Shown here: positions 18,401 to 61,300 of the stretch, piece by piece
How the letters are laid out: each line of letters opens with the position of its first letter
Position numbering within the stretch: position 1 is the stretch's first letter
Assembly (NCBI GenBank): GCA_040954595.2
Contig: CM082593.2
Coordinates: 3,675,434-3,739,433, forward strand
Length of the DNA: 64,000 bases
Source: Balanoglossus misakiensis
Taxonomy: Eukaryota > Animalia > Hemichordata
Direction: 5' to 3'
Program-made: the position numbers and the translations under genes
The notes under the pieces: generated by a model
The model's database searches: none
Seen by the model: only the letters and a program-made list of their open reading frames with translations
What the model was told of the DNA's origin: nothing

Positions 18401-21234
18401 TTACATTTGCTGAATCTGTAACAAAACAGAAAATTGCGGACAAATTAGGTGAAGTGAAAATATGATGGAAAACAAAGCCTGTCTCAGTGTAGGCAATCAA
18501 TTTGCAAGATCAAAAAAAGACAAGATCGATTTGCAGAGAAATTTCCTAAACATTTCTACGATTTTCTGGAGATTCCTTTCACCTCTCCATCAAATTTGAC
18601 ACCACCGGGTGTTGTGACATCCACACTGACATTTGCGCGGTGCGGTGGAGTCGGCTGTCTTTGCGGAGTGGATGACGTCGATGGCTGCTGCTCGTCGGCT
18701 TGGTACGAATAGTTGTAGTGGTAGTTGTCATTGTCCGGTGTCGGGTCAGCGGGTCCAGTCTTCTTCTCCGGGATGAGATCGCCGTACGCGGCATTGTCGA
18801 ACGTCACTCCCGATTTGTAGTCGGGTGGCGGCTCGGACGGGTAACCAGGGGCTCTTTGCTTCTTCAAATATCTGAGGTCAAAAATGAGAAAATATCGTTT
18901 TGAGAGTATTCAAAATTGAAGTCTTCTCCTACAAAACAAATCTTCATGAGTTTGGTAAAAACAAAAACGTTGCCTCATAATCACATGGTTGCGCTCCAAT
19001 CACGCCTATCAATCCATGAAGTCATTCACGTAATGCGAAGCCATCTCGTCTGTTGAAACCACGTACCTGAGACTGAGCATGTAGATTATAGTGATAAGTA
19101 CAATCACTGCACCCAGAACGCCACCAACAATGGCTGCAATATCTCTCTTCTGTGAAGTACTGAGTCCATCTGCAAGAAATGTAACAGATAATAACCCAGT
19201 TATGTGGATGTTTCAGAAATAAATTTAGCGGCGAAAGCATACAACTTTGTATTGGAGACATTATTTAGCTTGAAATGCGACAAAGATGTCACTTACTGTA
19301 GGCATATTTGTGTGTCTGGCATCGCTGGCCAATGTAATACCCAATGCAAGTACAATTGCGGTTTCCAAACTGATCCATCATACAGATTCCATCATTGTAA
19401 CAGTAATTATCACATGCTCCTGAAAATACAACATTTTTCACACGTTATGTATAAGGAATGATTTTTTGTAATACAAAGATATGTTTGGCTGAGCTTTGTC
19501 CAAACTGGACATATTAGGGTGACGTTCTCCATGTCATTTTGAATGCTGGGTTCAGGGGACTTACAGTATACATTCACAGAAAGTGGGAGGGTTTACTTAC
19601 TCTCTGAAATCTGGCACATATCACCAGAGTATCCCTCGCTACATTCACAAACTGGGTAGCCCTTATTGTTGAGGGTACACACGCCCTCATTCTTGCAATA
19701 GTCAATGCACAGGTCTGCCAAAAGAAAAATATTACTAATATTAGCAACACATCAACGATAATGTGTTATTGAACAGTTTTTTTTTCAATAGAATACACAA
19801 TTTGTTTGGTCTTGCACTGACCTACATGTACATGATTATAAAATCTGCAGTACAAACTTACCTGAATTGCATGAAGGTGAATCAGCTTCGCATCCTGTAG
19901 AGATAAAAAATGATGCAAATTAGCAGCCATATTGGGAGAAAACACTGTGAGTTTTCATTCTGTTACAAAAGAAACTGTAACAGCAGACTTAAGTTATTTT
20001 TAAGAAGAAATATGAACTATGTGTTTGCATACTATGAGCACAAGTATAATTATAGGTTCCCACGCAAAAAAAGAACAGAAAAAGATAGTTACCAATGCAC
20101 TGAGAAGATGCAACTGATCCCTCTGTCAGTGTGGTTGTCATGGCAGGACATCTCTTGCAGTACGTCTGACCAATCACAGACTGGTATTCACCCAGTGGAC
20201 ATGGCTCACACGTACCGCTGGCCACATCTTTGTAACTGCCGATGTTACACTCGACTGTCATCAAAACACAGAAGGCAAAAATTAGGAGGAAACAGATTTA
20301 AGATGCAAGAGAAACGAAATCTGCATAAATCAAACATGGCTGACTGACCGATCGTGGGATTTGACACCCTGCACTAAGGCAAACTGCAATCATACATCTT
20401 CTGACAAAAACTAAGGGCGACCTGCAGTCGTTAAACTTACCAACATTGCAATCTGACTCGGAAACAGCTCCTGTGATGGAAGTAGTGAAACCAAACGGAC
20501 AGTTTCTGCACGATGTCTCCTCAGCGAGACCGTAGGTACCGACTGGACAGGGTGTGCAGTCTCCGCTAATGCCAAGCTGTTTGCCGGCATCCATACATAC
20601 AACTGCAACAATGACAAAAAGCGGATTAGACCATATAAAAGCGTTTGAAAGTGATTAGCACATTGAGGCTTGGTGTTCTGCACTGCACTGGTCATAATAA
20701 ATTACTACAACTACAACCTCATCTTGTTATACGAGTCCATGAACTTACAATTGCAATCAGTGACTGATGTAGAGGCTGTGTTTGCGGTGGACATGAAAGA
20801 TGGACACGCCTTGCATGAGAATTTTCCGCCTTCGTCTTGATAAAAGCCGAGAGCACATGGCTCGCATCGACCATCTTGGTTGTAATATCCCAACTCACAG
20901 CTCACTATTGTAAAATAGAAAAAAAAGGCATTTTAAGTTTGATTATTGTAGGTTGTAGGAAATGGAATGGGAAGCAACCAAAACAAAAATAAAACAAGTT
21001 TGTCAACTTACTAAGTGAGAATACTTTCCAGACAAAAGAAGTAGTGAAATTTCTAACCATTGAAGGACTCACCTACACACATACTGTAAGAGGTGGAACC
21101 AACACCTTCTGTCGTCTTTTGAGAACCACATGACTGACATGTGACCTGGGCTTCCTTATCCTGGTACTCTCCTTTGGGACACTTCTTGCATTTGTCTTCT
21201 GTTGTGTTGTGGTACTCTCCCAGTGGGCAGTTGA
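18401..21234 (-). CDS. Paralog A GCC repeats x4, 33-nt microexon, EGF x2, transmembrane helix and cytoplasmic tail
   Basis: [26 protein letters not shown] followed by RYLKKQR (exon 19067-19169). Tail exon 18583-18871. Last exon IQQM* after acceptor tttgttacag. Read-through to a stop at 18556 is an alternative ending. Confidence 0.88.
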
Positions 21235-24200
21235 CTATTTGGAGGCAAAGAATAAAGAATCACATTATATGAACAAGACAAGATGGCCGCAAGGGTATAT
21301 TCTAACATTGCACACCCTGTAGTAATCACCCTGCACAAACTGACTTTCTGTTAAAGAATATGCCCAACACTTACTGCAAGTGACATCATTGAGAATTTTG
21401 CCGTCCGGGCACGAAATGGTGGTGAAGCTCTCAATGGATTGTGGGTCAGCTGTAAAGCCGTCCGTATTGAACTCGCCGTCAAAGGCCGCATCCTCTAAGA
21501 CCTCGTCAACTGACCGTCCGTCCTCAGTTGGATTCGGGCTGTTGATAATAAACGAATAAAGAAAATATCTGACTGAGCCATGCCACATAAAAATTGGTAA
21601 TGTTAGGATTACCCACAATGCTGTGCAACCCAAGTCCACCAAAGTCTACCAACGACGACCGATGAGGAAACATAGATACTTACTTGGTGCCAAAAGAAAA
21701 GTCAAGAGCGGCCGTGGTGGCAGTGTCGTCTTGGCGTTTGCGTCTTAACGTCCCGTCTGGTAGACTCTCGTCGCAGACAACCTGAGTACTGGAGAAGTCG
21801 CAAGCGTCAGAGCCGCAGATTCCAAACAGCGAATTCAGGTATTCCAATTTCTCGATAAATGCCGCCTTCAACAAACTGTTGGGTTCCCTCTCACCGTTGG
21901 GGTCGTCGGGGTCGCACTCTGCGACCGAGAACTCCATGCTACCTTCCGTGTGGCAGTCGGCTGGATCACTGCCTAATCATCACAGAGAAAAAACAGAAAG
22001 AGAAATTAGTGAAGCTTGATAAAAAGTATCATAATGCCTTGATGGGAAAGGATTAAAGACTGAAAGAAGTTTAATATACAATATACGCACTCATCATCTG
22101 GTGTGATTTTTATCCCATACCTGCACATCCGGGGAAAACGAAGGGTTCATCCGGAGCCTCCGGATCCCACACTCCCTCGCTTCCGCATGCGTAGTAAGGA
22201 GCTGGCAGCACAGTGAACACTTTGCCGACGTTGCATCCGATGGTACAATAGAGACCGTACTCCCATGTGTCGCACGTCTTGCTGCCCTCTATAGGTGGAG
22301 ATGGATCGGGGCAATCGATGGCTGAGGAAACAAAACAGAAGACAGAATGTGAATAGCGGCCTCTACATGTATGCTAATATTCAAAACAACACTTTCTTCC
22401 TGATTGAATACTTGATACAAAGGGTGTCATAATGCTGAGGGTGTCGGTATACTCACGAGTGATGTAAAGCCTAAAGCTGCAAGCAGCCGTATTGTTGTTG
22501 GCATCGTACGCCACACAAGTCACAGAGTAGACTCCCCAGGCCACTGTTGCGCCATTTTCGATGGTACACGAAACGTCGACGACGCCCACATTGTCCTCGT
22601 AATCTAATTCACCGTAGTCAACCACTGTCAGCCGACTGTCGGGGTTCACGATGCGCACATCAGCAGGACATGTGATGGTTGGTGGCTCCTTGTCTGTGAA
22701 AATCGGGCGGAAAAATATTGAAGTTCATGTTTGGTTGCCATATTGGATATTGCATTATGGGTAAATCATAAACCTACGTGTGATGTCAGAAGTCAGGAAA
22801 TACCAAAAATAACCACATCAGATTGATCACAAAATTTATGAATTAGAATTCACATACCCCCACATGGACAACCTTTGTAGAAACTCTCATCTGGGCACTG
22901 GTGTCCGCCACAGATGGACGGTCTGATGACATGTGTGCAGCCGACGCGGTAATACTGACAGTATATCCATTCCACAATGTCTCCTTGCTCGTCACGGACG
23001 CGACAACCCCGCGAGTAAATATCGCTGATTTCGCTGGCATCGAACACCCTGCTGTGCATGTTGAATTGGCTGATTTCGCCGTGGAACGCCAGGCTGTCGT
23101 CGCTCGACTCGTAGGGGCGTCCGAGCATAATCTTCAACCTGTTTGAGACCAAAAGTGCCCATTATTTTGACAACAGTCAGAGCGACACTGTACATTAACA
23201 ACTTCAGTGATGATTATAAACAAATAAACTTGTTTGTATCTGCCTTGATCTCTCAGCGGTGTTTTATTGAGCCCATAGGGCAGAAATTTACTGCCAATCC
23301 TGAAATGTCCACAGCTCGAAGCTTACCAATCTGATGTTGTTTCTCCAGTCCTGACATTGTCCCTGCTGATTGCGGCCTCTCCATCGATGTACCAGGTCAA
23401 CGATCCTGACTCTGAGTCCCAGGTCAGAGCCAAGTGGTGCCACATCCTGTCCTGAATGTCGTCAAATGGTTCGCCGGATGGTAACTCATGGGCCACTGTG
23501 AAATCAGTGCTGGGGAAGGGAAAAATTCACAAAATGTACCGTCAATGTACAAATGTGTGAAATGTATATGAATTTGATGAATCAGTCTCCACATTTAGTT
23601 CGTGCTACGAGACATCTTTACACTTTCACTGATCTGTTATGACTTGTTCACCAATCAAATTTAATTTCTGACTTATAACAACAGAACTGTATTACTTTCA
23701 CGATGCAACATGCGTGGTGATTGGTTATAAAGCAAGACTTACAACTCTTGGGTGTCCGACTCGATGACCTGGAATGGAGTACCGCCGCTGTCTTCACAGG
23801 CGTATCGGATCCAAAACATGAAAGTGTATGCGGAGGCACTGAAAGTCTGGGCTGGTGATTGGGCGTAGGACGAGTCTTCAGCACAGAAGTACAAGTCGAA
23901 GTTCGGACGCTTCTCTGAAATGATACACAAAAGGGCAACAGAAGACCAATCAGAACTGGGGCAATAGTATGCACCTGCCAGCCCTGGTGTACTAATTGGG
24001 CTCTTTTACGAATACACTCTCTCAAGCTAGTAGAACATTTGGCTATGTACACAAAGTGTAGATTGGGTGTTTTTTCTCTAGATAACCAATAGCAATCATC
24101 ACCTCTAAAATTTGCGTTGTACAAATTTTACGAAGATGAAGTTGCATTTTTAGTTTCTGACAGGGATTTCACAGTTGGTGATACTCTCTGAAAAAAACGA

Positions 24201-27200
24201 GACGAGTACGACTTACTCTTGCTGCATGTCGGACCCGAGTACACGGGCGTGCATCTACATCGGAAGCCATCAACCTTGTCAATGCACGTGCCGCCATTCT
24301 CGCACGGGTCACTCTCGCACTCATTAATGTCTTCCTCGCAGTGTTCGCCGTCATAACCGTCCGCGCACTCGCATTCGTAACTGCCGTACGTATTGTGACA
24401 CGTGGCTGCATTTTCACATGGGTAGTCATTGCACTCATTGACATCTTCATCGCATGTCGGTCCAGTGAAACCTGTGAACAAAGTATTTCACCGAAATCAG
24501 CATATAATTTGACCCTAAATTTCCCCTCTAAATCGACCCTTAAGTATTTCCATCTGTGGGTGGTTCATTTAGATCACTGCCTACATTTTATCAAATTGTG
24601 ATATTTCTTCCAATATTGCCATTATGTTGGATCATTTTAATGTGTTGAAAGTAGATATAAATAAATTAGATTTTACTTACCGAGTGCACATTCACATATA
24701 AATGAGTTGTGTCCATCAGTACAGGTTGCGCCATTCTTGCAGGGATCATTTTCACAATCATCAATGTCCTCCTCACAGTATGGACCAGTCCAACCTGGGG
24801 CGCAACTGCCAACAAAAACATATCAGGAGTTAAGTTAAGAGGGAAAAGAGATTTGGATTTGATTTGAATCAACTATGGGTCTCAGCAAAGGAGGTGTGTT
24901 CCAGTTGATAAAGTATAATTACGAAAATTGTCATATACTTGTAAATCGGGACTTACTTGCATTCGTATCCATCAACAATAGTACTGCAGGTGCCGTCATT
25001 TTGGCATGGGTCCGATGAACAATAATCTTCTAAGTTTTCGCAGTCAGTTCCACTGAATCCCTCCTGACAATCACACTCGTAGCCATTGACCAAGTCAATG
25101 CAGGTGCCATTGTTCTGACATGGCTCAGACACACAGTCATCCATGTCAATCTGAATAAAAAACCCTCAGTAATTTAATTAAATCTGAATGTAATAATTCC
25201 AACATAAATGTACTTGAAAGTAGCCGAAATGTTGTCCAGTTTGAATTCAATTGACAATTTTGTACTTGTCAATCCAGAATAAACCGAAAAATGTGAGAAA
25301 ATTACAAATAATATAATATTTGAGATGAAACTTCGGTTCAGAAGTGGTCGGTTACTGACCTCACAGAAGTATCCGGTGTAGCCGTCTGGACAGGTGCACA
25401 TGAATTTCTTGCAGGAACATGGACCTGGGGGAGCTGGCAGTGCTGTGCATACACCACCATTCTTGCATTCATTGGGATCACATGGGTCATCGTCTTCTAG
25501 TTCACAATGGTCACCTAGAAACAAAACAGAAAGTTATGTTAGTACTAGCATAGATTGAAAGTGTCATGTGAATACAATGTAGATGAGTGTTGTCACATAT
25601 ACATGTACACACTGAAGATGCCAGTGGGTTGTGTGTGTGTGTAATGTGGTCTGTGTGTCTTTTGTGTTACATCATACCTGTATATCCATCTTCACAGATG
25701 CACTCATAACTGTTGTCGCCATCTCTGCAAGTGCCACCATTTTGGCACACCACGTCCTTGCAGTCGTCATCGTCAATCTGGCAGTGTCGGCCGCTGTAGC
25801 CCGTCGGACAGCCGCAGGTGTACCTATTGTTGCCGTCGATGCATGTGCCACCATTCTCACATGGATCTGGGTCACAGTCATCTGTAGAGGAATATTCAAC
25901 AAGTGGGGTGAACAAATATGAATGATCATCAAAAAATATTTTGGCCGCCGTAGTATAGAATAATGATGTCATAGTTCTTGCGTGATTCTCGTCTAAAATC
26001 CTGGTAAAGTGACAACTTCATGACCTTACCTATGGGAGTTTCACAGTATTTTCCAGTGTAATCTGGTTGACAATAGCAATCCACATCGTTGATCCCGTCC
26101 ACGCAAACTCCGCCATTCTCACACGGGTCACTCTCGCAGTCGTCGATCTTCTCCTCGCAGCGGTCGCCACGGTAATCAGGCGGGCACTCGCAAATGTAGC
26201 CATCTTCATGGTCGTCCGCCACCACGCATGTGCCGTTGTTCAGGCAGGGGTCCCTGTTGCAGGGGTCGTGGACTATCTCACACTGGTCGCCGCAGTAGTC
26301 GGGCGGGCAGATACAATAGTAGGACTCGTCCGTGTCAACGCAGGTGCCCCCGTGCAGACAAGGATCACTGGAGCAGCTGTAGCTCTTCTCACACCGCACA
26401 CTGTTACAGGCATTAAAAATATAGCGTCAGCGACACTGTAGCTCCCATAAAACATTCACATAGCACAAATGTCTCACTTAAACCACCGAAACCAATGTAT
26501 GGCTGAAGAATCCGAATACTTACCCATAGTACTGTGGTGGACATTCACAGATGAATGTGTGAGGACAGGATCCAGAATGACAGGTGCCTCCATTCAAACA
26601 AGGCTCAAAATAGCAGGCATCTGAAACGTCAAAAGTTCAGTATTTGTGATTATGTAATTTTTACAGTGACTTAACATTTTTAACGCAGCCACTAGCATCA
26701 ACATGAACTACAGTTGAGAAGGAATCGACCAAACATTTGAACACTGACCGACGCAATCATCTGCACTAGTGGATCCTTTTCCAAGTGTCGTCTTATTGTC
26801 TTCACATGGCTTGCATCGTCGCTTGCCCTGTTCGTCTTGATAGAAGCCATGCTCACACGGACGGCATGGCTGCAGTCCGGTCCTGGAGTGGTAGCCCGGT
26901 GGACAGTAAGCTGTAGAAGTGACCAATTCGCATTGACACATCAGTCATGTGATGTAACGGTCATGTGGCCAATATGAGACAGATTTCAGTGACCACGTCA
27001 TAGAATAACAAGGAAAACTTACCACTACAGTCATTGGAACCTGGATGACTGAACAGCCCATCCTCACAGGGCTGACAAGCCATGTTTCCATATCCTGCCG
27101 CGAAATAATTGGCCGAGCAGATGTCACATGGTAGCATTCCATCCAGAGAGTAGTATCCATGGCGACAAAGAGCTGAGCAGAGAATACAAAAAAAATCTCA

Positions 27201-30200
27201 GATAAACTTGTTCAGAAACTGTCTTAATCTGAACAAACTTTCTTTATAATAAATTGTATCCAAACTGCATCGTGATGGTGATGGAACTTACGAATGCATC
27301 TGTCGTGGTGTTTAGTTCCCTCATGCCTTGTGGAGTGGTGTTCCGGACATGACTTGCACGACCTCTTGCCAGCTTCATCTTGATAGTAACCAACGGGACA
27401 GCTGACACACTCGCCGTCCTTTTCATACGTTCCACGAGTACACTTCACTAAAATAACGTCAAAACAAACAAATCAGTTTTTAACATATTACCCAATGTAG
27501 GCACCACCAAAAATTGTATTAAAGTGGAGCTTAATTAAAGGAAAATACAGTATTCTCCAATGGGTAAATACCAATGGAGAGTGACTGAAAACAACACTCA
27601 CAGCAAGCGCAGTCCTTCATGGTGTATCCCCGTGGACAGTGACAGCCACTCTCTATCAGCTTGAATTCCGTCTCCTGGGTGACGTCGGGACAGTACTCCC
27701 ACAGATTGGATTCCTCGGCAACGACGAGATCCTTGTTCTGCCAGTCTCCTACTTTCTCGGCTACACTGTCTCTGCACTCCCTCAGCTCGGTGCAGTCCAG
27801 CTGAGTTCTGTCACCAGTGACCACCAACGTGAAACGGATGTTGACGGTATACTATAAAGAAAAACATAAGGTACATGCATACCAATTTTCAAATCTATCT
27901 GACCTTTAGTTGTTGAGTTTCTTAATGTTGACCAATTTCACAAGTGTTCGATGTCGACGGACATACAGACCTGCTCTTTGTTAGTTTTTAACTTGGTTTA
28001 TACTGAAGTACTGTACATGTAAATGTAACACAATTTTTCATTGGGTGGTAACTCTTTCTGATACTGACTCAAAAGCAACACACATTTTCATTGGCTACTC
28101 ACTCTATCTTTGAGGTCAGGGCAAATACACGCTGGTTCATCACATTCTTCAGAGTTGCGCGAGCCCCGGCCCCTCCTTTTGGAGTTTCCACTGCATTCAT
28201 TGCTCTTCGTAGACTTCTTTTTCTCTCCACTCTCAACATCACAGTAACATTCGCATTCCTCACTGCTTGCTCTGGAGTTCCTGCTCGCTCTGGAATTTCT
28301 CCCGCGGCTGGTCGCGTAAAACCCGCATACCCGTCCGCTGTTGTTCTCTTGGCTTGAACGGCGGCTTGACTTACGGTCAGCTGATGCTGAAGATCGGGAA
28401 CCACTTTCCCGCTCCCGGCATTTGGGGCGTTCATCTTCTCCTGAACAACTTCTTCCTCTGCCGTTATTCCCGGACGCCCTGCTGTTACGGTTTGAATTGC
28501 CATTGCCGTTGTTGGAACATTCATTTGAACGGCTGTTAGTGTTACTACTACGGCTGCCAGTGCGGCTTCCAGTGTCATCTTCGTTACTGCTACTTCTTGT
28601 GTCGCTGTCATCGTCTTCTGAACACCTGCTTCCTCTGCCGTTATTCCCGGACGCCCTGCTGTTACGGTTTGAATTGCCTCTGCCACTGTTGGAGCATTCA
28701 TTTGAACGGCTGTTACTACTACGGCTGCCAGTGCGGCTTCCGGTGTCACTGCTACTTCTTGTGTCGCTGTCGTCTTCCTCTGAACAACTTCTTCCCCTGC
28801 CGTTATTCCCGGACGCCCTGCTGTTACGGTTTGAATTACCTCTGCCATTATTTCCAGAAGCCCTGCTGTTTCGATGTGAATTGCTACCTCTGCTGTTGGA
28901 ACAGCCACTTCTGCTACCGCTGCTGCTACTGCGCCCTCCGCAATCGCACCGTCTTCCGGATTCCCGACTGCTGCTTCCTCCGCTGCTACTTTCCGTATCC
29001 CGACTCTCGGTGCTGCTCCTGGTTCCTGAACAGTCGCAGTCATTGCTTCCAGTTCTTGTGTTCCTTCCACTTCTTTCCTCCCCACTTTCTGAACAGTCGC
29101 AGTCGTCTCTGGATGCCGTGTTTTCCCGACTACCAGTGCTTTCCCGACTTTTTCCTCTTTCCTGGCTTGCCCGACTATTTCTGCTATTTCTGCTATTGCG
29201 ACTATTCCTGCTATTGCGACTATTCCTGCTATTCCGACTATTTCTGCTATTCCGACTATTCCTGCTATCCCGACTCCCCGTGCTTTCCCGACTTCCCGTG
29301 CTTTCCCGACTTCCTGAACTCTCCCGGCTCTCTGTACTCCCACTTTCTGGCACCGTTGGCTAAATATAACAAGAAAACACAGAAATTCACAGAATTCAAA
29401 TCATGCACCATTTACAATTTCATTTCTCACACTGTACATTGTATGAGGCGTACTTGGTGTACACATCTCACCATGCCCATATAAGTTGATATTTTGAACA
29501 TTAAAATCTATATTTATACCTCTTCTATTTTGACAACTTCCACAACAACACGAAGGTCGACATTCTCTTTAATGTCATCACTACAGTCTTCTAGCAAATC
29601 TGCCTCGTCGATGACCCTCTGTATCAGTTCGTTGTACACTGCCATGCAGTCCTCTCCAATTTCACAATCGGCAGAGTAGTTGGCAGACACTACGACTCCA
29701 CAGTCTGGGACCTCATACGCTGAAGCGAAGGGTAACAGAACAAGTTTCATCAGGTTGAAAGGATAATTGAAAGACAGAACTCTCAATATATTGAAAACAA
29801 AGGATGATAAAGTCTTTGGTAAAGTTTAATACAATTAAGCATATTTCGATCGACAAAATTATTTATGTGAACGTACGTGCACATCCAGGCACTCGGTTGT
29901 TAGGCAGCCATCCATTGACATCAGAGCAGACATAACTGTTTGATCCTGGGATCAGCTCCGGCAATGGCTGCACAAAACCATAGCCTTCCTGGCAGCCCAC
30001 ATTGCAGGAGAAGCCACCTCCAATTGGAGCGGCACAGGTGATGTCTCCATGTGGGGGCAGCATCAATGACCATTCTGGGCAGCCCTTCACTGAAATTACA
30101 GAAGTAATAACTTCAACTCATCTGTATTAGACTTTCTGATTGGTTATTGAGCCGTGTCATGTCAGCAAGGTGGAGTTTAAATCTAATTGGCCGAGTGACA

Positions 30201-33200
30201 TTCAACTGATAATAAAAGCAAAATTTATGATAAGAGAGGTACATTTTTTCAATTACAAGTTTGCGTTTAGATTAATAGTGAAGGCTGAGAGTATTCAATG
30301 CAGCTTCTGAAGCCATCAAATTGTCAGGTGCCTGTTCAAGGCGTGGCCTGGTCAAATACAAGACAGTAGCTGAGTTTTGACTTACGAACAACGATGAGAC
30401 CGAACCAGCATTCACCGACGTTTCCTGCTTCATCATAGGCGGCCACCCGGACTGAAATATACTGGAAAGTCCAGAGGACCAGTGTCTCTTGTATGTACTC
30501 AACACGGACCACTCCGACGTTATCAGTAGCCGTCACTGAATCCAAATAAGTCTGCAAAGTGACATTGACTGATTGCTCTTCTGTCTCTATGACGACCACC
30601 GCTGGACATTCGATCTCTGGAGGTTCAACATCTGTTGGAGAAGTAGCTTTCTGTGATTATCATGTATTATCCTTCTGTCTGCTGTCTGTCTCCGTTTACA
30701 AGCCAATTCAGGTTTCCATCACTTAACGAATGTTTAACTTGAAATCCAAATCTATTTCTAACAGAAGTGAATGAAAAAGAAACAAAACATCTATTCAGAA
30801 AGACAAATTCTTACCAACACATGTAGGGACCTCTCCACTCCAGTACGGTTGCGGAACGACCACATCTTCAATCGTGATGTCTTTCAGGCAGTCAAAGGAT
30901 GCCAGTGTGATGCCCAGAGATACGTAAATGGTACTGCTAGGATCAATTACTATAGTGATTTCTGTCGGGATGGTGCCATTCGCAATGGAGGTGACAAGGG
31001 CAGTATAGCTGTGGCCTGCTGCCAGGTAGAAGGACAGCCAGCTGGGAACGTCTGCATCGAAACATGCTGTGACCTCTTCCCATGCATCAGGCGTCACGCC
31101 CATGGGGATGTCGACGCGCACGCCTTGCCTGATGGAGTAGTCGTACTGGATGTAATGCACCTGGATGGAGTTCAGGCGATCTTGTACCTCGCCGGTCATC
31201 TCCAGGCCGAGCATGTACAGAATCCGGCAAATGCAGAAGTCCACGTCTCGAATCTGCACCTCCAGATGCTTGAGGTCAGCAGGACCGCTGACCAATGCGA
31301 GGAACTCGGTCATCAGGGCACCGTCCAGGGCGTCGACGATGTCAGCGTACAGGGCTGGAAAGTCGATGGCGTCGATGAAAGTCACCCTGATCTCCCGCAC
31401 GCAGTCGTTGACGACGAGGCCGTAGGATTCTACGACCTGAACGAGACCTTGGCTGCCGTATTTGAGGGTGTACGCAAACCGGTGCAGGTCTTCGGGTCCC
31501 GAGTAGAAAGCTGAGATTCCGGCTAAGATCGCGTCATCAAAGCAGGTCCTGATGTTCATGTCCAGAGCTACAAAGTCGATGTGCCACTCAGGTTTGAATG
31601 GAAGGTAAAGGATGCCGTCTCCAATGTCGGGGCCACTGCCTTCATCCCCACCATCGTTGTCGCCATTGTCGTATTTGACGTACGTCACTTCGATTAAAGT
31701 CAGGCAATCCAGTACGTCAGTCGGCACAGTTACAGTTACGCCCAGCAAGGATGGAATTTGGCAGACGCAGAAGTCTTCTGTCCTAATGTACGATTCATAC
31801 GGCTTGAGATCGGCAGGACTGGTGACATAACCATCGAACGCTACCAGAAGTGTGGTATCTAGGCAACCTCTGACGCCGTCATACAAAGCTGTGTAGTCGA
31901 TCTCGTCAATGTACGTCACGGTGATCTCCCGGACACAGTCATTGACGCCTAGGCCGAACGACTGCAAGATCTGAATCACAGCCTGGCTTCCTTGTCGGAG
32001 AGTGTCGGCGAAACGGTGGAGGTCGTCGGGTCCGGAGTAGAGGAAACTAATACCAGCCAACTGCCATCCATCATAGCAGTACCTTATGTCCATGTCCAGG
32101 GCTACGAAGTCAATACGCCACTCAATCTCTGTACCGCCGTCACCAGTGCCGGGATCACCATCTCCGGGGTCCGGATCACCACCACCTTCTCCGGGGTCCG
32201 GATCTCCACCACCGCCATTGTCACCACCGCCATTGTCACCACCGTGATGTTCCTCGTATGTGGTGTACGTGACTTGGACACCATCCAGACAGGTATTCAC
32301 GTCACCTGGCAGTGCTACGTTATAACCGAGCAGGGTCGGAAGCTGGCAGATGCAGAAGTCTTCCTGTCTGAAGTTACTTTCATACTGCACCAGATCAGCA
32401 GGGCCCGAGATGGCACTATTAAACAAGGTCGACAATGTGCTATCCAGGCATCCTTTGATGTCGTCGTACAACACCACGTAGTTGACCTCATCGACATATG
32501 TGATTGTGATCTGTTGCACGCACTCATTGGTACTTAAGCCAAACGCTTGCAGTAACTGAATAATGGTCTGGCTCCCGCTTTTGAGCGCGTCGCCGAAAGG
32601 TTGCAGGTCTTCAGGTCCAGAGTATACAGCTGAAATGGTCCCCAAGGTGAGACTATCATAGCAGTTCCTGATTGCCAAATCCAGAGATACAAAATCAATG
32701 CGCCACTCGATTTCAATACCACCATCACCACCACCATCACCTCCGCCACCTCCAGTTGAATATTCAATACCATCCAGACAAGCTTCAATTTCTGTGCTGA
32801 ACTGATCTGCGGAATCGGCGATCAAAACTGCCAAGAATCCCTCTGCGTCCATTGTGCCCTCTGTGAATTGGTTCAAAGAGTCTGCATATACAGAAGGAAT
32901 TGTGAAAGTACTCCCCTCAGGGTAGCCCTGACACACGTTGATAGCATTCAGTAGAGCCACTTTTTCAGGTGGAAGAGTGATCGCTTCGTCCGCCATTATA
33001 CCTTCGACGTCTATCGCGCCAACGCAAGCCTGCTCCTCCTCGGTCAAGGCGTCAAGAGCATCATTCGCTAAAGCATCGACAAACGCCCTTACTTCGTTGA
33101 CGTCACCATTTGGGTTACTTATAATGACGTTGTATTCAGCGTCGTACCCGAATGGAAATGAAGACGGAAATGTTACAGTGCCATCTGTTATATCTCCTCC

Positions 33201-36200
33201 CCAACATACCGACACTTCAGCAAGTACCTCAAAGACTTTTGGTGGTACTGTGTGAGCCTGCCTTCTCAATCGCTTGAGACCACCGGTGGAATGGATGCTG
33301 GTCACAGATCGTCTATTCCGAGCTGGATATTCTGTGTTGTGAAAATGACCAAAAAAAAAAAAAGATCATGACCATCGCAATCAACAAAAAGTAAGCATAT
33401 CCACAGAAATCGGTTATCCAGCGACAGACAAACTATAGTGACCAACTGTCAGGCACTCACCGCGTTCGACAGGCATCACATGATAGCCATCCACAGTGCA
33501 CATGATAGACTGGTGGGGTTTGGGGCCGTAGCCTTCTTGGTCACACAAGAAGTGCAGTTGGTTGCCGACATAGTACTTCCCAAACATGCTGTACTGCTGG
33601 CCGTCATCTGGGCTGCCTGGATCTTCACATGTTAACACTGCATGGGGAGCATGAAAAAAATAGTTGATGATTGATTTCTATTGGAAGCGCCATTTTTCTA
33701 CTTACGTTTCCCTTTTTCATAAAACTGGCGTTAGTTTTGATAATCTTATGTATGTAGTATAAGTTGGAAAAATGTTGACTGCGGAGGTTATTTAGAAGAG
33801 GTCAACTTACATTTACAGTAAGGCACTGAGTCACTCCATGAACCATCTTGTTGACAAACTCTCTCTGACAAGCCAATCAGCTCATAGCCAGGATTGCACT
33901 TACAGATGACGCGGTCACCCACACGCATGTCTTCGTAGTAACATTTGGCATGCTCAGGGAGTGATGGGTGGCCACAGGGAATTCCTGAAAATAATATCAA
34001 TGATTATGATTTATGAATCGACGTCGGAAACACACATACATGTACCCCCTCCGGTACACACAAACCAAAATTAAGTGTCGAAGAAAGAGAGTAAGTAGTC
34101 TATGTTCTTACGTTTGCATTCTGGTACAGGACCAGTCCAGCCGTAGCTATGGTAGTCGAGTCTTTGACACACAGACACTGCAGGGCCGTACAAAAGATAC
34201 CCATCGTCGCAGCTGTAACTCACACTACTGAGGTAGCCATAGTTACCGGTACCAGGGTCCGTAGCCACCCAACTTCCATGTTCAATATTCGGTGGGTCGG
34301 TGCATGTTGCCACTGAAGAAAAAATCACAAAAGTTGAAACACATTAATTTACGACCTAGACAGTTTTTTTATTTTATTATTCAATCTCAAAGCATACACT
34401 CAGTTTTTACTTAGACACTGTCTTGACAGGAGCATAGACACTTTCACTGTTACCTTCTATGCTTGGAATTTCAAAGTCAAAAGTTCCGTTGGCTGTGCAT
34501 GTCAGTTTGTATTCGCCAGAGACACTGTAGCTGGTCTGAGTGACGATCTCGAAGAAGAAGTTGTACGGAATGCGCACTGACGATTCTCTGTACTGGCACC
34601 CACAGCCCGGGGCGTAAACGGCAATGCCGAAATTGAAGGTTACGTCCAGGCTGCACATCACAGCTGTAGACAGGGAAGAAAAACACTGACATGAGACCAA
34701 TTGTGCCATAATATATATGGTGCTGCATTAGCTACAATATTTGAAGAACTTTACAGGCAAATTTTTGGAACGCAATTTTTGATGGCCATATGGTGAATTT
34801 CCTCATTTGACGTTACTTACGAACACAGGTTCTGTGCAAAACATAGAGACTGCGGGCATCAGAGCCATCCTCCCCATCAGGCAGAAGGAATCCATTGACG
34901 CCATCCGCATCAAAGAGAGTGTATCCATCATAACAACTGCACACGTAGGAACCATCTCTGTTTTCGCATTCCTGGTTGCACAGGTTCAAGCTGTCGTCGG
35001 AACACTCATCAATATCTATCAGGATGGAAAATATGAATATTTAAAATAATTGTTGATGACAGGTACATTTATTAAATTAATAAATTCATTTTCAGCACGG
35101 TCTTGAGCGGACACTCACCAATGCAAGTGACGGGATCTCCCTCGGGGTGGTGATAACCATCAGGGCAGCTGCAGTCAAAAGTTCCTGGTAGATTGGTGCA
35201 TACTTGCGTTGAATCACAAGGTGCGTTTTCAGTGCACTCGTCAATATCTGGAAAGTGTCAACAAAAAGCCAATACTCATGAGACTTCATATCATATGCAT
35301 AGGCTTTATCACTTAAACATTCTATAGATATCTATAGAATTGTGCAGTCTATTCTATTCATGAGACTTCATATGCATAGGCTTTATCCCTTAAAACATTC
35401 TATAGATATCTTCATCTGCAATCATATGATAGATATTACTGGTACATAATCCACCTCAAGCTTGTGAAATACATGTATATCCTTACCAACACAAGATGTC
35501 AATTCGTTATCCCAGCTGATAGGGCCTGAACAGGTTGACGTGGTAACAGAATCGGATGGCAGTCTGAATCCATCCTTGCAATGAAGGGTCACTGTATCAC
35601 CAACTTGGTAGTCATCTTCGGGGTCCAGATAAGAACTCACTGAATCAAAGAGAGGCTCGATACAGTACGGGCCTGTACAGAGAAATAATAATAAAAATAA
35701 TAATAAAGAATAATTGTAAAGAGCCTAATCATACATGTATGTTAACTGTAAGGCATGGAATAATAAACTTCAGATAAAAACAAAACTATTTCCTTGTGAT
35801 TTTATCTCATTTTTCTAAAAAAATGATAATATCTGAACACTCACTTGAACACCTTGGCGGATCATTGGACCAAGTTCCATCACGTCGACAGAGCGCGATA
35901 CTCCAACCGAGAACAGATTTACCATCATTGCAGCCGTACACAACAACACTGCCAAAAACTGTTGAACCAACTTCTACAATGAAGCCTCCCTCTGGAGCAA
36001 CCGGCTGAGGGCATCCGACAGCTGTAAGAAGAAAACACAGTCAGTGAAACTGACACTTTTGAAGCACGGACTGAAACCGATGGAATGACACACTTTTGTC
36101 CCTCACGTACCTGAGCATTCCTGAATTGGGCCCCATGTGCCGTCGGCTTGACAGGAGATGGTAACTTGTCCAAGATCTGCTCCGTATCCATCAACACATT

Positions 36201-39200
36201 CATACACGGCTAGATCTTCAAACAGGTGAGTGCTTATGCTGACAATATAGCCATGGAGAATGGGTGCAGGTCGACCGCAAGAAATTCCTGTCAGGAAGAG
36301 GCATAGAAATTCTGCATTTGGCCCTTTGAATACCTTATTTTTTGCTATCAAAATGTGCTGCAACATTTTTTTTCATTTTCAGAAAATTTTCCTCATTTTC
36401 CCATTAATTCTTGACCAAGCGGAAAATTTGCTGTTGTCTGCAGGTCTTGATAAAAAAAAAATGTAAAGCTTTGATATCAATTTGGTGAGAAATGACAAGT
36501 TGATGTTCTGTATAAGAATATGAGATGGTCCAAGGCATTTTAGAATCAAGGCATTCCAAACATGACATTACAGTGAACTAGACTAAAAGTATGCAAAATA
36601 CTGGCACATACTGCGGCATCTTGGTGGTCGGGTGTTGCCATGGAAATCCCAATGTCCGCAGAAGTCACAGGTGACACTGTCGTAATCTGGATCGTCTAGT
36701 ACAAAGCCTGGTGCACAACTGAATTGGACTGTGACTCCATAGGCTGTATTGGTTGTGTCAATGACAGTGCCCTCTTCCAAGTCAAGAGCTGGGCAATCTG
36801 TTGATAATGACAGGAGAAAATACACAGAGGATGATATAGAACACTTGGGCAGATCGATCAATTAATCAATTAACAAGCATTGAGAAATATTCCTCACCTC
36901 GTGAGTATCTAGCTTTGAAACCGTCTCCTTGCTTGTTGTTATTGCTGTAAAACTTGACGAAAAGATGACCCTCTGCGGACCTGACAGTCGCTGGTTTAAT
37001 GTCACCGTCTGCACCTCCAGTGTGTTGATCGATCAGAACCTCATCATCTTCTTCAACGTTATTGTAAACCTGAAATATTTGGATAAAGTCAAAAATGGAC
37101 ACTGAAGCAGCAGAGGAAATTGGTAATTATTGTTCTTTACTTGCCGGACACACGAATACCGGTACACCAAGTTTGTAACTTACACTAATGTAGTCATTCT
37201 CCTTCCTCTCCTCCAGCTGGAAGTCGTCGAAGGACAGCGTCATTCCGGACTCATCCGGATCTGTGATGATCCAGGTGCACAACAGCCGGTTTCTGTATTG
37301 GTTGATGGGATAACCAGGTGAGGTGATGAAGCCGCATTTCTGCTCCAGCTCGATACCCCTGCAGCCTGCGGAACATGACGAAAAATGTGGAATTTGCAAT
37401 CAGAAATGAAGATGATTTGTGGTGAGAAAGATTCTTAAAGCCCCATGAGCTGCCACTTTTTGCATTTCTGTATTCATCATCCATTACTGTCTGAAATTAA
37501 CCCAAATTGTCATGTCAGTCACATTTTTTTCAGAAATAAGGAGAGAATGTGTAAAAGAACACTTTTCCTTAAAATTTAACTTTTACCTGATTTGAAGGAG
37601 AACAAAAACCCTTCGTCGTTCTCGGTAGCATCCGAATGGAATCGTACGGCCATGTGCCTCTTGGAAGAAATGAATGGCCCTGGTAAGTAGTCGTTCCATC
37701 GGTTTCCAGACAGTTCAGCGATGATGTTCACGTGGGTGGAGGCTGAATTTCCATCATGGAGATTCACGTAGTCGTTGATGGGTTCGGTCGCAAAGACATC
37801 ATGGAACTGTGATCAGAATGGATAGGTATTGTAAAATTTCACATAAGTTGATATTAGAGCAATAGTCATGTGTGGGATTTCTACTGCTGGGATTTGATAA
37901 TGGGAGTTTTTATGTTGTCATTGTTGTTACAAAAGCTACAAGTTATATGGCAGGTGGGATTTGAAAACATGGTGACTAGAATCTGTATCATATTATAATT
38001 ATGATAATGAAATTCCAAAGTAAAAAGTCTTCATGCAAATAATGCGATGGATTTTAACAATTTGTACAAAAAAGCAAAACACACACAAAGGTGCCAAAAC
38101 TGGGGCTTTAAATCGCATGGAGGTGTAGCTACTGGGGCTTTAAATTGTCACTGACCTGCAGAGTGACCACGGTGTCATCAAAGCACACATCAGGGTCACC
38201 GTTACGGGGGCTGTCGTCATCGCAGTGCGAAGGTCGGTCAAACTTCAAATGCCAGACGCAGTCCTCCTCGTGGGGGTAGTGTTCGTAATCCATGAATCCT
38301 TGGCTGTAGAATTCCTGGGGCTCCAAGGAAGTCAGGAAGGTTCCACCACACTGGGCTTGAACTGCAACAAAAATGATCAGAATAGATGAAGCCAAAGTAA
38401 GTTAATTCTTGTCTTGAAGTGACACCAAGTGTTTGCTATTCCTTTATCAAACATGTTCCACAGCATTCTATTGATTTTGTCATTGATATATAATTCAATA
38501 GACTTAGGGTTCAAAACTATACATCTATGTACATAGAAATCCATAGAAGTTCTACAAACTTCCATAGAAATTTTGTAGACTATGGAATTTTCATCAAATA
38601 TCTACTCCAATTACATAATTAGGGAAGGCATGATGTGATGTCATTAAAATTGCTTGATAACAGAACCCTATTGACTTACGTGTGTGCCATTCAATTTTGA
38701 ATCCGTTGTACAGTCCGTCAGTGCTACCATCCGTTTCAAACGTCACAATGACCAGGTGATTGAAAGAAGTGAATACATGTTCTTCATCGCTCCAACCTGA
38801 CGCCTCTGTAAGCACCATGTCGTCCAGAGTTCCACCATTGTATATTGTCACCCAGTCATAATTCAACTCCAAATCCAAGTCCGTTAGCTGGAAAAAAAAA
38901 TCATTGTCAGAACTAGGAAAAAACAGTTGGATCGTAAGTTTGTAGTCTGTGTTTCAAATAAACTGACAGACAACTGCATTGGTTATCTTGGTGTTGCATA
39001 ACGTAGTGACTCATGTTTGTGAAACTCATACATTGTGTATTTTCAATCAAAATTGGCTAAAATTGACCGATGAACCAGAGTCATTGAGTCAGGGTTGGTT
39101 AAGTCTGTATAACAAAATTGTCACAAATATCGTCTTGAAACTTTTGGGAGCGAAGACAATATTCCGTCACTTACCTCCAACACAACTCTGGATCCCACTG

Positions 39201-42200
39201 GTGCCTTGATGTACCACTCACAGAACGCATTATCCGGATAACCTCCTTCAAATCCAGGACTTGTGATAACTCCAGACGTGCCCTCTTGAATTCCACCACA
39301 TGCTTCTGCAAATTTTGAGATTTTAACAGAACAAGTTCAAAGTGGGATGTTTGTTTTTTCTAAAACTATAGAAATTACCATCATGACAATTATACTGTTA
39401 CGAAAATTAATGATATTACTATGTATACCAATGGGTTTGGACTGAACCATGGTGGAGAAAGGTTTGAGAAGCAATGACTTTTTGGGGGACTGTTCTCACC
39501 TGAGCATCCTAACTCATCGGATCCATCGGAACAATCTCTGTCTCCATCACAGATGAAAGACGATGGAACACACTCGGCACCATTACCGCAACGGTAATAG
39601 CCTGAAAGAAAACCAATGACATGTTATACTTTGTTTCTGTTGATCGAAACTATATATTGCACAAGTCTGCACGACCGACAAAACTGCATGGGTTATATGT
39701 TTGTAACCACCGACCTGAGAGACATGATGGTATCTCGCAGATGAAGGACCTGGGGTCATCGCAGTTCCCAAAGTACCAGTCGGGGTTGATGGACAACGAG
39801 AGGTAGGCACAGTCTCCCAAGATGTCGTTGAATGCAGACGACGCCCACTGCCCTTCCATAATGTTGGCCTCCATGCCGTTTGCGTACACGAAACTGCCAT
39901 CATTCCCTTTGAAACCTGGGAGAAAAAGATATAAAATGGAATTGTCAATGGGATATGTAATATTGAAAAAAAGCTACATGTTCCCTTTTTTGAGTTCAAC
40001 CTTCTAAATTCAACCCTACCATTCAATTCATGCACCCATACTCATCCAAGAACAAAGTGAAAAGTTGAACATTATGTCTATTGATGTAAACAGTGAACAA
40101 TCTGCACAAACCAACAAAAATACCAGGATTTGAGGTCTGTGAGGGTCATAAGAGTGGCCCAATAATTTTTTTTTTAAATTGTTGAAACACAGAACTACAG
40201 ATAAAATAATATGCTACTCACCAATCCAAAGTGAGGAGTCTCCCAGAGTCACAACAGTGGCAGCGTACACAGCTATTTCAAGATTTGCAGCAAAACTGTC
40301 TATATTTGCCAAGTATCCTCCATAGCTGTCATTTAATGCAAGAAAAAAAGAAAAATATAAAGTTTATTCAATAAATTGTGATAGCTACTCAAAAAAAATT
40401 GTGAAAATTTTACCAAACGTTACATATATGTAGCTCTAACCAATTACCTTGCACACGTCACGTTGGCTGCATGCCAAGATGAAGTAAAGGAAAAATATTT
40501 CACACACTTGCTGCCTACAAGAACCCAACCTGCAGAAACAGAACATATCAACAGTTATGTCTGATATACTAGGTCTAATATGACAATTCAAAACAAAACA
40601 AACCAGAGTATGGAATATGAATATGTTAAAACAGGTATAAATAATGTGCCACAAAAAGTTCATACGTGTACTTTTCAATGTCTGTGGGTCCAAGCCATTT
40701 CTGAACATTTTTTAATTTATCATGACTTACCATCAGGGCAAGTAAGGGTTATTGTTGTTGACACGGTGAGCTCAGAGTAACCAAACGACACAGAGAACTG
40801 TAGATACAAAAGCAAACAAGAAGAGAGACATAAGTCAGATAAAATGTATGTAACTTCATAATACAGGCAGTAAAACGGCGCAGCCAAGCTCTGCCACGTG
40901 TAGTTAGCTCCCTGGCTGGGTACCCCCCCCCCCCCCCCCGACCACGCCCCCTTTCTCTATGCGTGTCCTCTCAGGCCGGGGCTGTGGATCTGGAGCAACT
41001 CTTGACGACTTAGAGAGACCACAGACCCCAGGGCAATATTTCGGTAAGTCTCACCAACCTGGTTAACCAAGCATCCGTAGCATTTTCAACCGAGACCTTC
41101 ATGGGTTTAATAAACCACGGTTACGCTGGGCGCCGCCATTTTGAAATTCCCGCAGTGAAATGAATTATGGGAGGTAAATAACCACTGTCGCTTAGATACG
41201 CCGGAGCCATGACAACCATATCCTCGTGCCAGAACTGGGTTTCGTTTTAAAATACAGCAAAACAAATCGGTGCCGTTTGGCTATTTTTATTACAACATCA
41301 TTCTTCTCAACCACAATATCGCTCACACACACAAACCGTAACCGTGAGAGCATAGTAGTGACGGATTAGTGAACGAAAAAGGGCGTTGTTGCATTAAGGC
41401 CCAGAACTGGATTAATCCGCAGAAACATCGCCTGTGACCAGGTGAATGATTCAGTTTGCAAAAGACCTTGGCAAAAGACTAATTTCGACCATGAAAACAC
41501 GACAGCATCAACTCTGTTGATTTTGACCTTTGTAAATTTGCACGTATTTACAACTCAAGTTCAGGATTGGAGCGGCCACACCCTGTCAAGGTTATGGGTG
41601 GTCCTTTTGAATTTTTCCCAGGGATCTGAACGATTGAGACAAAGCGGATTTTCATCCAGCTTCCCCGCCAATTATTTTATACCTAGTGAAAATTGATGTA
41701 TTTTGTTGGCGCCGCTTTTTTCTTGTAATAACGAGTAAAATTTGTTTGAATGAATAAAACAAAACTTTTTACCATCATGATGTATGCAAGATCATGAACA
41801 AGAAATCAGTCGAGACGATAATTTATATTTTAAGTGTGTCTGAGTGGCCCCCTCCTCCGCCTTCGGTCGCTGAACCCATACGGCGTTTCGCAGCAAAGTT
41901 AACCCTTAGCAACACGTACGCATACGTATATTCCCTATGGGCTCTCGAACCAGTTCATAAACATGGGCGTATCCGACTTGCACGACAAAAAAGTGCCCAT
42001 TGTTGATTTATCCGTTGTTTGTCCTTCAAGTCGCATACGACCTAGACTGTGTTCAAGTGGTCAAGCTTTTGTATTCAAGTTTTCTTTGGCCATGAGCTAG
42101 TGCGGGACTTGACATTGGAACGCTTTCAGTCTTAAAAGAGGTGAACTTTTGTCAATGTTTCGAAGAAAACGTGAACCGGTGTTGTGATCAAACATTAAGT

Positions 42201-58300: not shown

Positions 58301-61300
58301 TATGGGCAAGAACTTTATAATGGACAACAACTAGTACTTTATTTTACTTCTTAACTACAAAAACTGACCAACACTGAACTATGAATTTACATTAGTCAAT
58401 TGCGAAGATCACAATCCTAAGCTAGATAAAATATAAATAGTGTAGAAAGGTCTAATGACCTTTTCCTCTGCATGCAATCAGTTTAATACACAGGAATAAT
58501 TTACGAGAATCGTAAATTCATCCTTACCAATACAGTCGGTAATGTTCTGAGAACCTTCTTGCTCAGTGATTTCATTGTCAGCACACTCTAGGCAACTGGT
58601 GGAACCTATAGAGTTCTGGTAGGAGTCAAGATTACATGGAGTGCAAGGCTGTAGACCTGTAGCTGAATAACTTCCAGCAGGGCAGGATTCTGTCAATAAA
58701 ATTAAGTTTGCATGGGAGACCTGCATGCCCTGTTGTGCCATCTGCATAAACTTTCATGATATTTCTACCTGACACAATATAGGCCTAAACAAACAAAACT
58801 GAAAGGCTTAAACTCGATGGTGTAGTTTCATTCTTATTCATGGAGCAGCTGTGACCATACCTATGCATTGCGATGATCCGGGACTACTGTGAAAACCATC
58901 TGGACAGGACTGACACGCCCTTCTACCATATCTGACAGATTTTGTGTCTTCTGGGCAGACATTACACGGCATCAGGCCAGTTGCAGAATAACTTCCTGGT
59001 GGACACAGCTCTAAGGAAATAGATGATAATGGTGTTTAAGAAATGATCAACAGTAACATTCACTGACGGTGGAACTAAAAGAATCAGAGACACTTGTAAC
59101 TCCAATCTTGCTCTGTAAACCATTAAAGTCTCTCTGAGTATTGATGAAAAACATCAGATATCTCACAAATGAGGGCAATATATACCTAGGCATTTATCAA
59201 CACTTGTGCTTCTTTCCTCCAGAGTGGAGTAATGGTCAGGACACAGTTTACACGAACTCTGACCAGCTTCATCTTGGTAAGTTCCAACAGCACAGTCGAC
59301 ACATGCATCGTTGCGTTCACTCGTTCCCGCGGGACATTTTACTGTTAAAATATAAATTAGCCGAAGAAATACATCATAGATTTTTCAAATTTCCATTACT
59401 GTCATATATTATGTGCTCCTTTACAAACAGTGATTAAATGACATGTATAATTCAAACAGAATTCAAAAACTACTTTTACTATTTTCCTGAGATTGCAGGA
59501 ATACACACTAAATCTGAACTTACGACAGTGGTCATTACGCATGCCGTAGCCACTGAGACATCGACAGGAGGTCTCGCTTTGATTTGGAGTCTCCTGGAAT
59601 CCGTCATTATTGAGGACGAGATTAGGGCAGGTGGTGTTGGCGATTTCCACTGTTAAACCGGTGACCTGGTCACTGATATGATCTGACAGCGAATCCAGAC
59701 AAGATTCGATGTCGTCAAGGTCCACGTCTCCAGTCACCTCAAGAGACACTTCAACAGTCACTGTGATCTACACGAGAAAGACAAAGTATTAGTTGTGTAC
59801 TATATGGTAATTACAGCTTTTCCCATCTAGTGGTCTTTCAGTGGGGTTCTTGGACTTTTCAAGAAGTGAATGAATTTATAACTCACCTTAGACTTGTCCG
59901 CTGCTATCTGGAGATTCAAACTTATTGATATAGTAACTGCATTCCAGATGGCCAGACTACACAGTGGAGGAAATTCATTCTGGGCTTTGGTTTGAAAAGT
60001 ATTTTTCAGGGCATTGCTGTACATGCTATAACAGGATGACTGTGTTGCCGGGGTAACAGCATCAAAGATACCCTCCAACTCTCGTTGACAAGTAGACTTC
60101 TCCATTGCTGACAATAAAACGGATAAAACATCCAGTCATTCACGGACACCAAGGAATTTCATTGAGAGTAAATAGTTACAGAAATGTCTTATCCACATGG
60201 AGTTAAAGCTCGTTGTTTTCAGTGTTCAACTCGTAACGAATTGAAATGTACACTTACCGACACACTGTGGCACTCGGTTATGGGGAATCCACCCGACTCC
60301 AAATCTGCAGATGTAGTAGCCACCTGGCTCGGGCAACGGCTGCACAAAGTCTGTGTTTGGCGGGCAGGTCACGCTGCACGAATAGCCAACTTCGGTTGAT
60401 GTCTCTATCAAGGGTGAACAGCTGAGCTGGTCATTGGGTACACCAAGACTCCATTCTGGACAATCCTTGGCTGTAAAATAATTTGAGCCCATTTTAAGCA
60501 TTTATCTCCATCTACCGGTACATGGTGTCTACATAAACCAATTGAAAGATTCCAGCTGTGAGTTAATACCTTGGACATCGATGTAAAAACTGCAACTGGC
60601 GCTGTTGCCTGCTGCATCAGTGGCTGTCGCGGTAACGGTCACAAAGGTCAGAGTCTGCACAGCCGTCAGATCTTCCACCGGTGGGTCGTAAGAGACAGAC
60701 TCGACTCCCACGTTATCTGTTACATTCACTGAGTCATACTCATAGGTCACTGTTTCTTCAGTATTTTCGGTGAGTATGGTTCGGGTCGGTGGACAGGATA
60801 ACCTAGGGGGCTCAACATCTGAAAGAAAATATCACAAATAACCTTGTTTTACCATCAAGTGACCAGGTGGTGTTCATGTTGGTTTAACCTTTTGACCACC
60901 ATGGTTCAGCCCAAACTGATTGTTATCTATGGTAAGGCTAGACCTCTGAAGAGGGAACTAGGGGCGAAAGGGTTAAGGTATATATTATGTTATGACATTA
61001 TTTGATAACTGACCGACACACTCTGGTACAGGCCCACTCCAGTACGGTCCACCACTCTCTCTTCTCCTTCTATTCTGAACATCAAGGCTTGGATTTCTTG
61101 AGGAGTCCCTCCGGCGGCGAACTGAGAAAAAATGATAAGTAACATTGCTTTGAAGCTTGGAATTCCATTGAAATTCCCATGAAAATATACCAGAATTGCT
61201 TTTACATGTGTTTCAAGCAACTGTACTGAAAGATACTAGAGGACAATGTATTGTCTTACCTTGTCCAGAAGATGCATCTGCAGAGATGAGAAATAGAAAA

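Follow-up and report, generated by a model that had tools for sequence, protein, structure and literature searches.

Does a Ser/Arg-rich stretch of 419 codons in an acorn-worm gene encode protein, is it always spliced in, and how does the protein around it accommodate it? The question arises in a 64,000-nucleotide stretch of Balanoglossus misakiensis DNA (here, the window), where a first-pass annotation had proposed a paralog-specific, skippable cassette exon set into the middle of a folded module. The answer that we favour, and hold to be moderately likely as a whole, is that a probably constitutive exon supplies a disulfide-tethered, disordered loop to the hairpin of a SEA-like domain in an Uninflatable-like protein. 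The features concerned are collected in Table 1.

Table 1. Features of gene A and of its paralog B, in positions of the window
Feature	Positions	Strand	Description
Gene A, Uninflatable-like type I membrane protein	18556..40797	-	53 exons; 4298 codons, stop-free; start-codon exon outside the model
Second SEA-like module of gene A (predicted)	21375..21972	-	two exons; RRKR (furin-type) in the loop aligned to the insertion point (alignment)
Host domain, C-half	27602..27851	-	predicted beta3-alpha2-beta4 plus Cys-rich end; ferredoxin-like/SEA-like; 7 Cys
Ser/Arg-rich exon	28103..29359	-	1257 nt = 419 codons, stop-free; 419 aa; S 27%, R 17%, N 12%, G 11%; 21 Cys; pI 9.7
Conserved tail of the exon	28103..28426	-	aa 312-419 (108 aa); 9 Cys; match to P. 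flava insert
Repeat-expanded head of the exon	28427..29359	-	aa 1-311; 12 Cys; SRES(T/S)G units, SRN x10, three CDC, four [15 protein letters not shown], 54/59-aa blocks
Host domain, N-half	29520..29719	-	predicted beta1-alpha1-beta2; ferredoxin-like/SEA-like; 4 Cys; donor GAG/GTATAA, weakest of gene A's 52
Second large A-lineage insertion	30815..33331	-	2517-nt exon (839 aa) in the eighth sushi domain; two furin-type motifs at its start
Paralog B, matching two exons	59524..60107	-	119-nt phase-0 intron between them; 8 Cys; no insert (exon match to gene A)

The insert is a coding exon

The exon lies on the minus strand between exons 29719-29520 upstream and 27851-27602 downstream, as first annotated, and is indeed phase 0-0; it is bounded by an acceptor ending in ...TTTAG and a donor GTGAGT. 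Its GC content is 53%, against 31% and 34% in the flanking introns. Were it intronic, the intron would measure 1668 nt, where the longest of the 52 introns of gene A has 349.

The nested repeats reported earlier were largely recovered. SRESTG occurs three times, [15 protein letters not shown] four times, and the duplicated blocks, given as about 55 aa, measure 54 and 59 aa; only the SRN run, counted as nine units, has in fact 10. The repeats respect the Ser/Arg reading frame: all 10 distinct repeat offsets are divisible by 3, and the repeats stop short of the introns, no 10-mer being common to the exon and either flanking intron. The two long blocks differ by indels of 9 and 6 nt and by 12 substitutions, 10 of them at codon position 3, and the first two short repeat units differ at the third position in 8 of 9 cases. 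Pooled, this gives 18 of 21 (p ~1e-6), with one block common to both comparisons. The corresponding pN/pS values are 0.046/0.183 and 0.029/0.762, and pN was well below pS in three of four pairwise repeat comparisons in this frame, the remaining one having 4 non-synonymous and 0 synonymous differences (Nd and Sd). The Ser/Arg reading frame is therefore under selection.

A second open frame of 433 aa (28099-29400, minus strand) overlaps the exon. We rejected it as a gene: it stays open in 1364 of 2000 synonymous-codon shuffles, and the differences between repeats are non-synonymous in that frame. It is a by-product of codon content.

The low T content of the stretch eases open frames, two of which are open here, and to that extent the stretch could be read as an untranslated intronic repeat. 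Against that reading, which is extremely improbable, stand the third-position bias, the indels that keep the frame, the canonical splice sites on either side, the GC contrast with the neighbouring introns and the homologous insert translated in an ortholog (below); 29359-28103 is almost certainly a real coding exon.

The insert is confined to the A lineage and older than the species

An ortholog was located by using another A-specific exon as the query, which reduced 1.84 billion representatives to 2 proteins. The strong match, Ptychodera flava XP_070544274.1 (P0003), is colinear with gene A, with 69% identity over the last 1825 residues, and exon by exon is far nearer to gene A than to B. It is an automatic gene model without the N-terminal ~770 aa, and the sole ortholog found. 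A search with the host region likewise returned P0003 as the only match among 4708 candidates of 1854-5900 aa; in a search with the second SEA-like module, 10 of 1604 candidates matched, two of them over the whole region: P0003 and a second P. flava paralog, P0009.

At the same site as the exon, the P. flava ortholog carries an insert of 155 aa that is rich in Ser, Gly and Asn. The exon tail aligns to it with 50 identities in 103 residues and all 9 Cys kept (Z 23.8, 1000 shuffles). The head (311 aa, about 50 aa in P. flava) shows no match beyond composition (Z -0.4), and appears from its motifs to be a later expansion that reuses those of the tail (RNSRAS, SNECS, CxC).

The matching exons of paralog B, 60107-59887 and 59767-59524, are joined by a 119-nt GT-AG intron with no insert, as had been noted, and P0009 has no insert at the host-domain site. 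Since the P. flava ortholog has an insert and the paralogs have none, the exon belongs to the A lineage alone yet predates this species. The description of the exon as paralog-specific thus stands in that only the A lineage has it, and needs amending in that a shorter form is present in P. flava. Exons of A and B match at about 30-60%, which implies that the duplication is old. Paralog B (49394-64000, minus strand) lies in tandem upstream of gene A on the same strand, its 5' part extending beyond the window.

Gene A encodes a large Uninflatable-like membrane protein

All 52 introns of gene A are GT-AG. The predicted protein begins with CLECT, LDLa, three CUB, eight sushi domains with two EGF, HYR, sushi and the host domain of the insert; it continues with ephrin-receptor-like repeats, an EGF array, LamG/pentraxin, HYR, sushi, a second host-like domain, further repeats, EGF, a transmembrane segment and a tail. 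The Lectin_C match (E 0.005) is below the curated cut-off; LDLa and CUB follow as matches on single exons, and each of the three CUBs in the gene model spans two exons. HYR domains number two each in gene A, P0003 and P0009, and FA58C gave no match in the 29 window stretches scanned or in P0003 and P0009. The cytoplasmic tail (18556-18871, minus strand) has PPxY and NxxY-like motifs and is conserved in P0003 (73% over the exon).

LDLa, LamG and ephrin-receptor-like repeats, all present in gene A, are also features of Drosophila Uninflatable (Uif). Uif is a large single-pass protein that carries CLECT, three CUB, some eight CCP, HYR and an array of EGF (PMC3340373, PMC12867482); gene A has the corresponding CCP and EGF arrays, a single transmembrane segment and a short tail. 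Unlike Uif, for which PMC3340373 gives two FA58C and three HYR, gene A shows no FA58C match and two HYR, and it carries two large lineage-specific insertions. No Uif sequence was among the matches of the host-region (4708 candidates) and second-module (1604) searches. By domain content, gene A would thus be called Uif-like and no more.

SVEP1/Polydom shares the sushi-HYR-ephrin-receptor-like core, EGF and pentraxin domains (PMC12549020). In human SVEP1 a SEA module is labelled in a figure legend and a furin site is mentioned (PMC13722417). SVEP1 differs in being secreted, in its vWA domain and in the length of its sushi tail, and the text consulted describes no comparable loop insertion.

The insertion point is predicted to be a hairpin loop of a SEA-like domain

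No Pfam family matched the exon or either flanking exon, and a PDB sequence search was dominated by EGF and sushi matches, uninformative on the host domain. An AlphaFold2 model of the P0003 region, built from a single sequence (mean pLDDT 42), has the order strand-helix-strand, low-confidence insert, strand-helix (b-a-b-[insert]-b-a), and its structural matches to ferredoxin-like chains span residues 74-336, that is, both flanks. The uninterrupted domain of P0009 was modelled from 6 sequences (pLDDT 61). Its best matches, at Z 9.5-10.5, are all ferredoxin-like (for example 2mq8, Z 10.5, rmsd 2.2, 96 aligned), and the exon junction falls at the turn between strands 59-71 and 75-86. The flanking exons are accordingly predicted, with low to moderate confidence, to form one beta-alpha-beta-beta-alpha-beta domain, and the insert likely sits at its beta2-beta3 hairpin in these models.

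An extracellular ferredoxin fold suggests a SEA-like domain, SEA being an extracellular domain of that fold (PMC6586460). The SEA structure 2e7v ranks 50th against the model of the P0003 region (Z 5.6, rmsd 4.9, 91 aligned); no SEA structure was among the best 50 matches in searches with the P0009 domain, a result that does not by itself exclude the family. The Pfam SEA profile at E 0.1 matched none of the 29 window stretches scanned, nor P0003 or P0009, and an Atlas search with the host domain gave matches all below 0.9. GSVVV, the mucin-type autoproteolysis motif that mucin SEA domains carry and the host domain does not, is absent from the module alignment. Judged on these sequence comparisons, the host domain is not a canonical SEA. 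Pei and Grishin reportedly described divergent SEA domains in 2017 (cited in PMC6586460 and PMC10556640), and the host-domain family may be among those that their supplements list.

When the nine modules of A, B, P0003 and P0009 were aligned, the insertion point fell in register with an R-x-K/R-R motif that all four proteins have in their second module. Two alignments misplaced half-domain rows and were left out of the folding, and a third misplaces the end of one half. The SEA-like heterodimerization domain of Notch has an unstructured S1 furin loop that lies outside the core, varies in length and sequence and can be removed without change of fold (PMC2726630). The furin motif in the aligned sister loop, together with the removable Notch loop, indicates that the exon most likely occupies a loop tolerant of length. 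The earlier description of an exon dropped into the middle of a folded module therefore holds as far as the extracellular module goes, but a predicted hairpin loop is structurally less odd a place than it implied.

Inclusion is probably constitutive

The first-pass annotation had taken the 0-0 phase to mean a cassette that could be skipped. An exon gained in a phase-0 intron, however, must be 0-0, and the phase therefore proves nothing on skipping; here it is dictated by the phase-0 intron common to A and B. We weighed a regulated cassette, in which tissues would alternate between two proteins, one of 4298 aa bearing the loop and one of 3879 aa whose domain is plain like that of B. Skipping would leave the frame intact, with 3879 codons and no stop, and the exon is the sole 0-0 exon among the 51 internal exons of gene A. 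The splice sites are also in keeping with it: besides the weak upstream donor (Table 1), the exon's own donor is the 9th weakest of 52 and its acceptor ranks 20th of 53, below the median, with a strong downstream acceptor (44th of 53).

The Cys count, by contrast, speaks against skipping. Both orthologs have 11 Cys in the host domain and bear inserts of 21 and 9 Cys, and the three insert-free modules of the first type have 8, 10 and 8, neighbouring domains having 6 each. With 11 Cys in the host and odd numbers in the inserts, skipping would leave one Cys unpaired, probably the last, whose partner position in the alignment, a Cys in P0009, is occupied by His in A and P0003. This parity argument is soft, because an odd number (7) also occurs in the second SEA-like module of 3 of 4 proteins, where nothing is inserted. 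Skipping would also leave a hairpin that falls 2-3 residues short of those in B and P0009. The sole model of the P. flava ortholog keeps the insert; its cluster has 1 member, while that of P0009 has 3 isoforms, which is weak evidence. From these comparisons inclusion is probably constitutive, and the regulated cassette is unlikely.

The insert is a Cys-rich, very probably disordered chain

Large hydrophobic residues (W/F/Y/I/L/V/M) make up only 1.9% of the exon product, so that disorder, proposed earlier, is very likely; the net charge is +23. The enrichments that had been pointed out were reproduced against 2000 residue shuffles: S-x-E occurs 21 times against 9.2 expected (no shuffle as high; 16 of 83 contexts after collapsing repeats, p 0.001), Ser-Gly 19 times against 12.8 (p 0.025), and CxC 6 times (three CDC, CECYC, CIC) against 1.0. 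Glycosaminoglycan attachment calls for Ser-Gly near acidic residues; here Ser-Gly with an acid upstream is enriched (17 versus 6.8 pattern starts), and with an acid downstream it is at expectation (6 versus 5.8). N-glycosylation sequons are depleted, with 1 found and 15.8 expected (1 of 28 distinct contexts, p 3e-4), and RGD is absent from the exon. In a similarity search the exon protein matched none of 7981 candidates, all 735-2095 aa long, a length range outside which full-length relatives fall, and an Atlas search with the tail gave no usable match.

The P. flava insert shows Ser-Gly (9 versus 3.7) and CxC (3 versus 0.5) enriched in the same way, but S-x-E (2 versus 3.1) and sequons (3 versus 4.1) as by chance. 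As the orthologs differ in S-x-E and agree in the Cys tail and Ser-Gly, the conserved core is the Cys pattern together with a Ser-Gly-rich disordered chain. The idea of a phospho- or glyco-domain is thus borne out by S-x-E enrichment in the B. misakiensis exon and not by the P. flava ortholog; phospho character, on these counts, would belong to the lineage of this species. S-x-E/pS is phosphorylated by Fam20C in the secretory pathway, which has been proposed also for invertebrate adhesives (PMC12621633).

In all four proteins the insertion point aligns with the R-x-K/R-R loop of the second module, and the Notch S1 loop is a precedent (PMC2726630); both raise the alternative of an oversized cleavage loop, which convertases would cut to give a non-covalent two-chain domain with basic Ser/Arg peptides released or exposed. 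Minimal R-x-x-R sites are in excess in the exon (23 versus 12.1), and dibasic sites lie near the C-end of the insert in both orthologs. The canonical R-x-K/R-R, however, is found 0 times against 2.3 expected, a deficit that alone is not significant, and dibasic pairs are depleted (7 versus 15.5) despite a K+R content of 19%; the P. flava insert, although enriched in dibasic pairs (10 versus 3.0), has neither R-x-x-R nor a canonical furin motif. We regard cleavage as distinctly unlikely. The Notch loops that were deleted, of 47 and 22 residues, are furin-cut, whereas the acorn-worm loop has 155-419 residues, is Cys-rich and has no canonical furin motif.

A second alternative concerns the head alone, which could be a tolerated, nearly neutral repeat expansion, function being confined to the 108-aa Cys tail. 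The heads of the two orthologs, alike in composition only and of such different lengths, would fit this. The repeat copies, however, retain their amino acids while third positions drift, and sequons are avoided, which argues that the head sequence is under some selection. A neutral head, which we consider possible though doubtful, is compatible with the favoured explanation, and the two differ only on whether the head does anything.

Under the favoured explanation of a tethered loop, the exon would have been gained in a phase-0 intron by the common ancestor of B. misakiensis and P. flava. The tail Cys may form four disulfides, plus one bond to the spare Cys of the host or to another chain, and the head would have grown in this lineage by in-frame duplication of tail-type motifs. 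Golgi Fam20C could then phosphorylate S-x-E, which would take the net charge from +23 to about -19 if all 21 sites carried two negative charges. The loop would thus stand on the cell surface as a tethered, charged brush, likely modified by phosphorylation or glycosylation, which might bind ions, glycans or matrix, and might add bulk or cross-links to an apical coat.

Relation to known systems and a second insertion site

SIBLINGs such as DSPP are phosphorylated by Fam20C, are net acidic and contain RGD. The exon is unlike them in its pI of 9.7 and positive net charge, its lack of RGD, its richness in Cys and its place as an internal loop of a membrane protein. Tubeworm cement proteins, proposed to be phosphorylated by Fam20C in the secretory pathway, share with the exon their Ser-rich S-x-E repeats (PMC12621633). 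Compared with such Fam20C-substrate proteins, the S-x-E excess of the exon is missing in the P. flava ortholog. A literature search, with subscription journals outside its coverage, found nothing linking Uninflatable with hemichordates, nor anything uniting SEA domain, insertion, intrinsic disorder, exon, serine-rich and disulfide. The parts are known and the combination is a variant; no new class of system is opened. What the locus shows is an apical scaffold diversifying through new exons in tolerant loops, followed by in-frame repeat growth around a conserved cysteine core. Should the loop cross-link or be phosphorylated at many sites, it would qualify as a candidate constituent of the acorn-worm surface coat and would naturally test the insertion limit of a SEA-like hairpin, with 419 aa against about 20-50 in Notch.

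The second large insertion (Table 1) contains three ~190-aa repeats, each opening with EW(R/H)IDF. It has no Pfam match, P0003 (46%) was the one strong relative to emerge from 1.84 billion representatives, and it is possibly a new repeat domain, arguably of greater interest than the Ser/Arg exon. At the sushi site of paralog B (61014-61277, minus strand) there is only an 18-nt micro-exon, with about 30 extra residues and two RRRR motifs. In P0009 the site (residues about 1170-2675) holds ~1500 residues with mucin-like Thr/Ser tracts, an extra SEA-like module and RRRR, and a weak DPBB_1 match (E 0.004) lies in this segment. The sushi site looks like a slot for variable payloads.

A broader and rather improbable extension is that the Uninflatable-like scaffold of acorn worms has two such slots, the sushi loop and the SEA-like hairpin, filled differently in each paralog. 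In gene A, what is elsewhere a furin loop would have become an uncleaved phospho-polyampholyte stapled by disulfides. Its multiplied CxC motifs might covalently link the apical coat or mucus, and differences in loop length would then adjust material properties from one species to another.

Convergent with gene A lies a rhodopsin-family GPCR, apparently intronless (13943-15175, plus strand; 7tm_1, E 1e-40).
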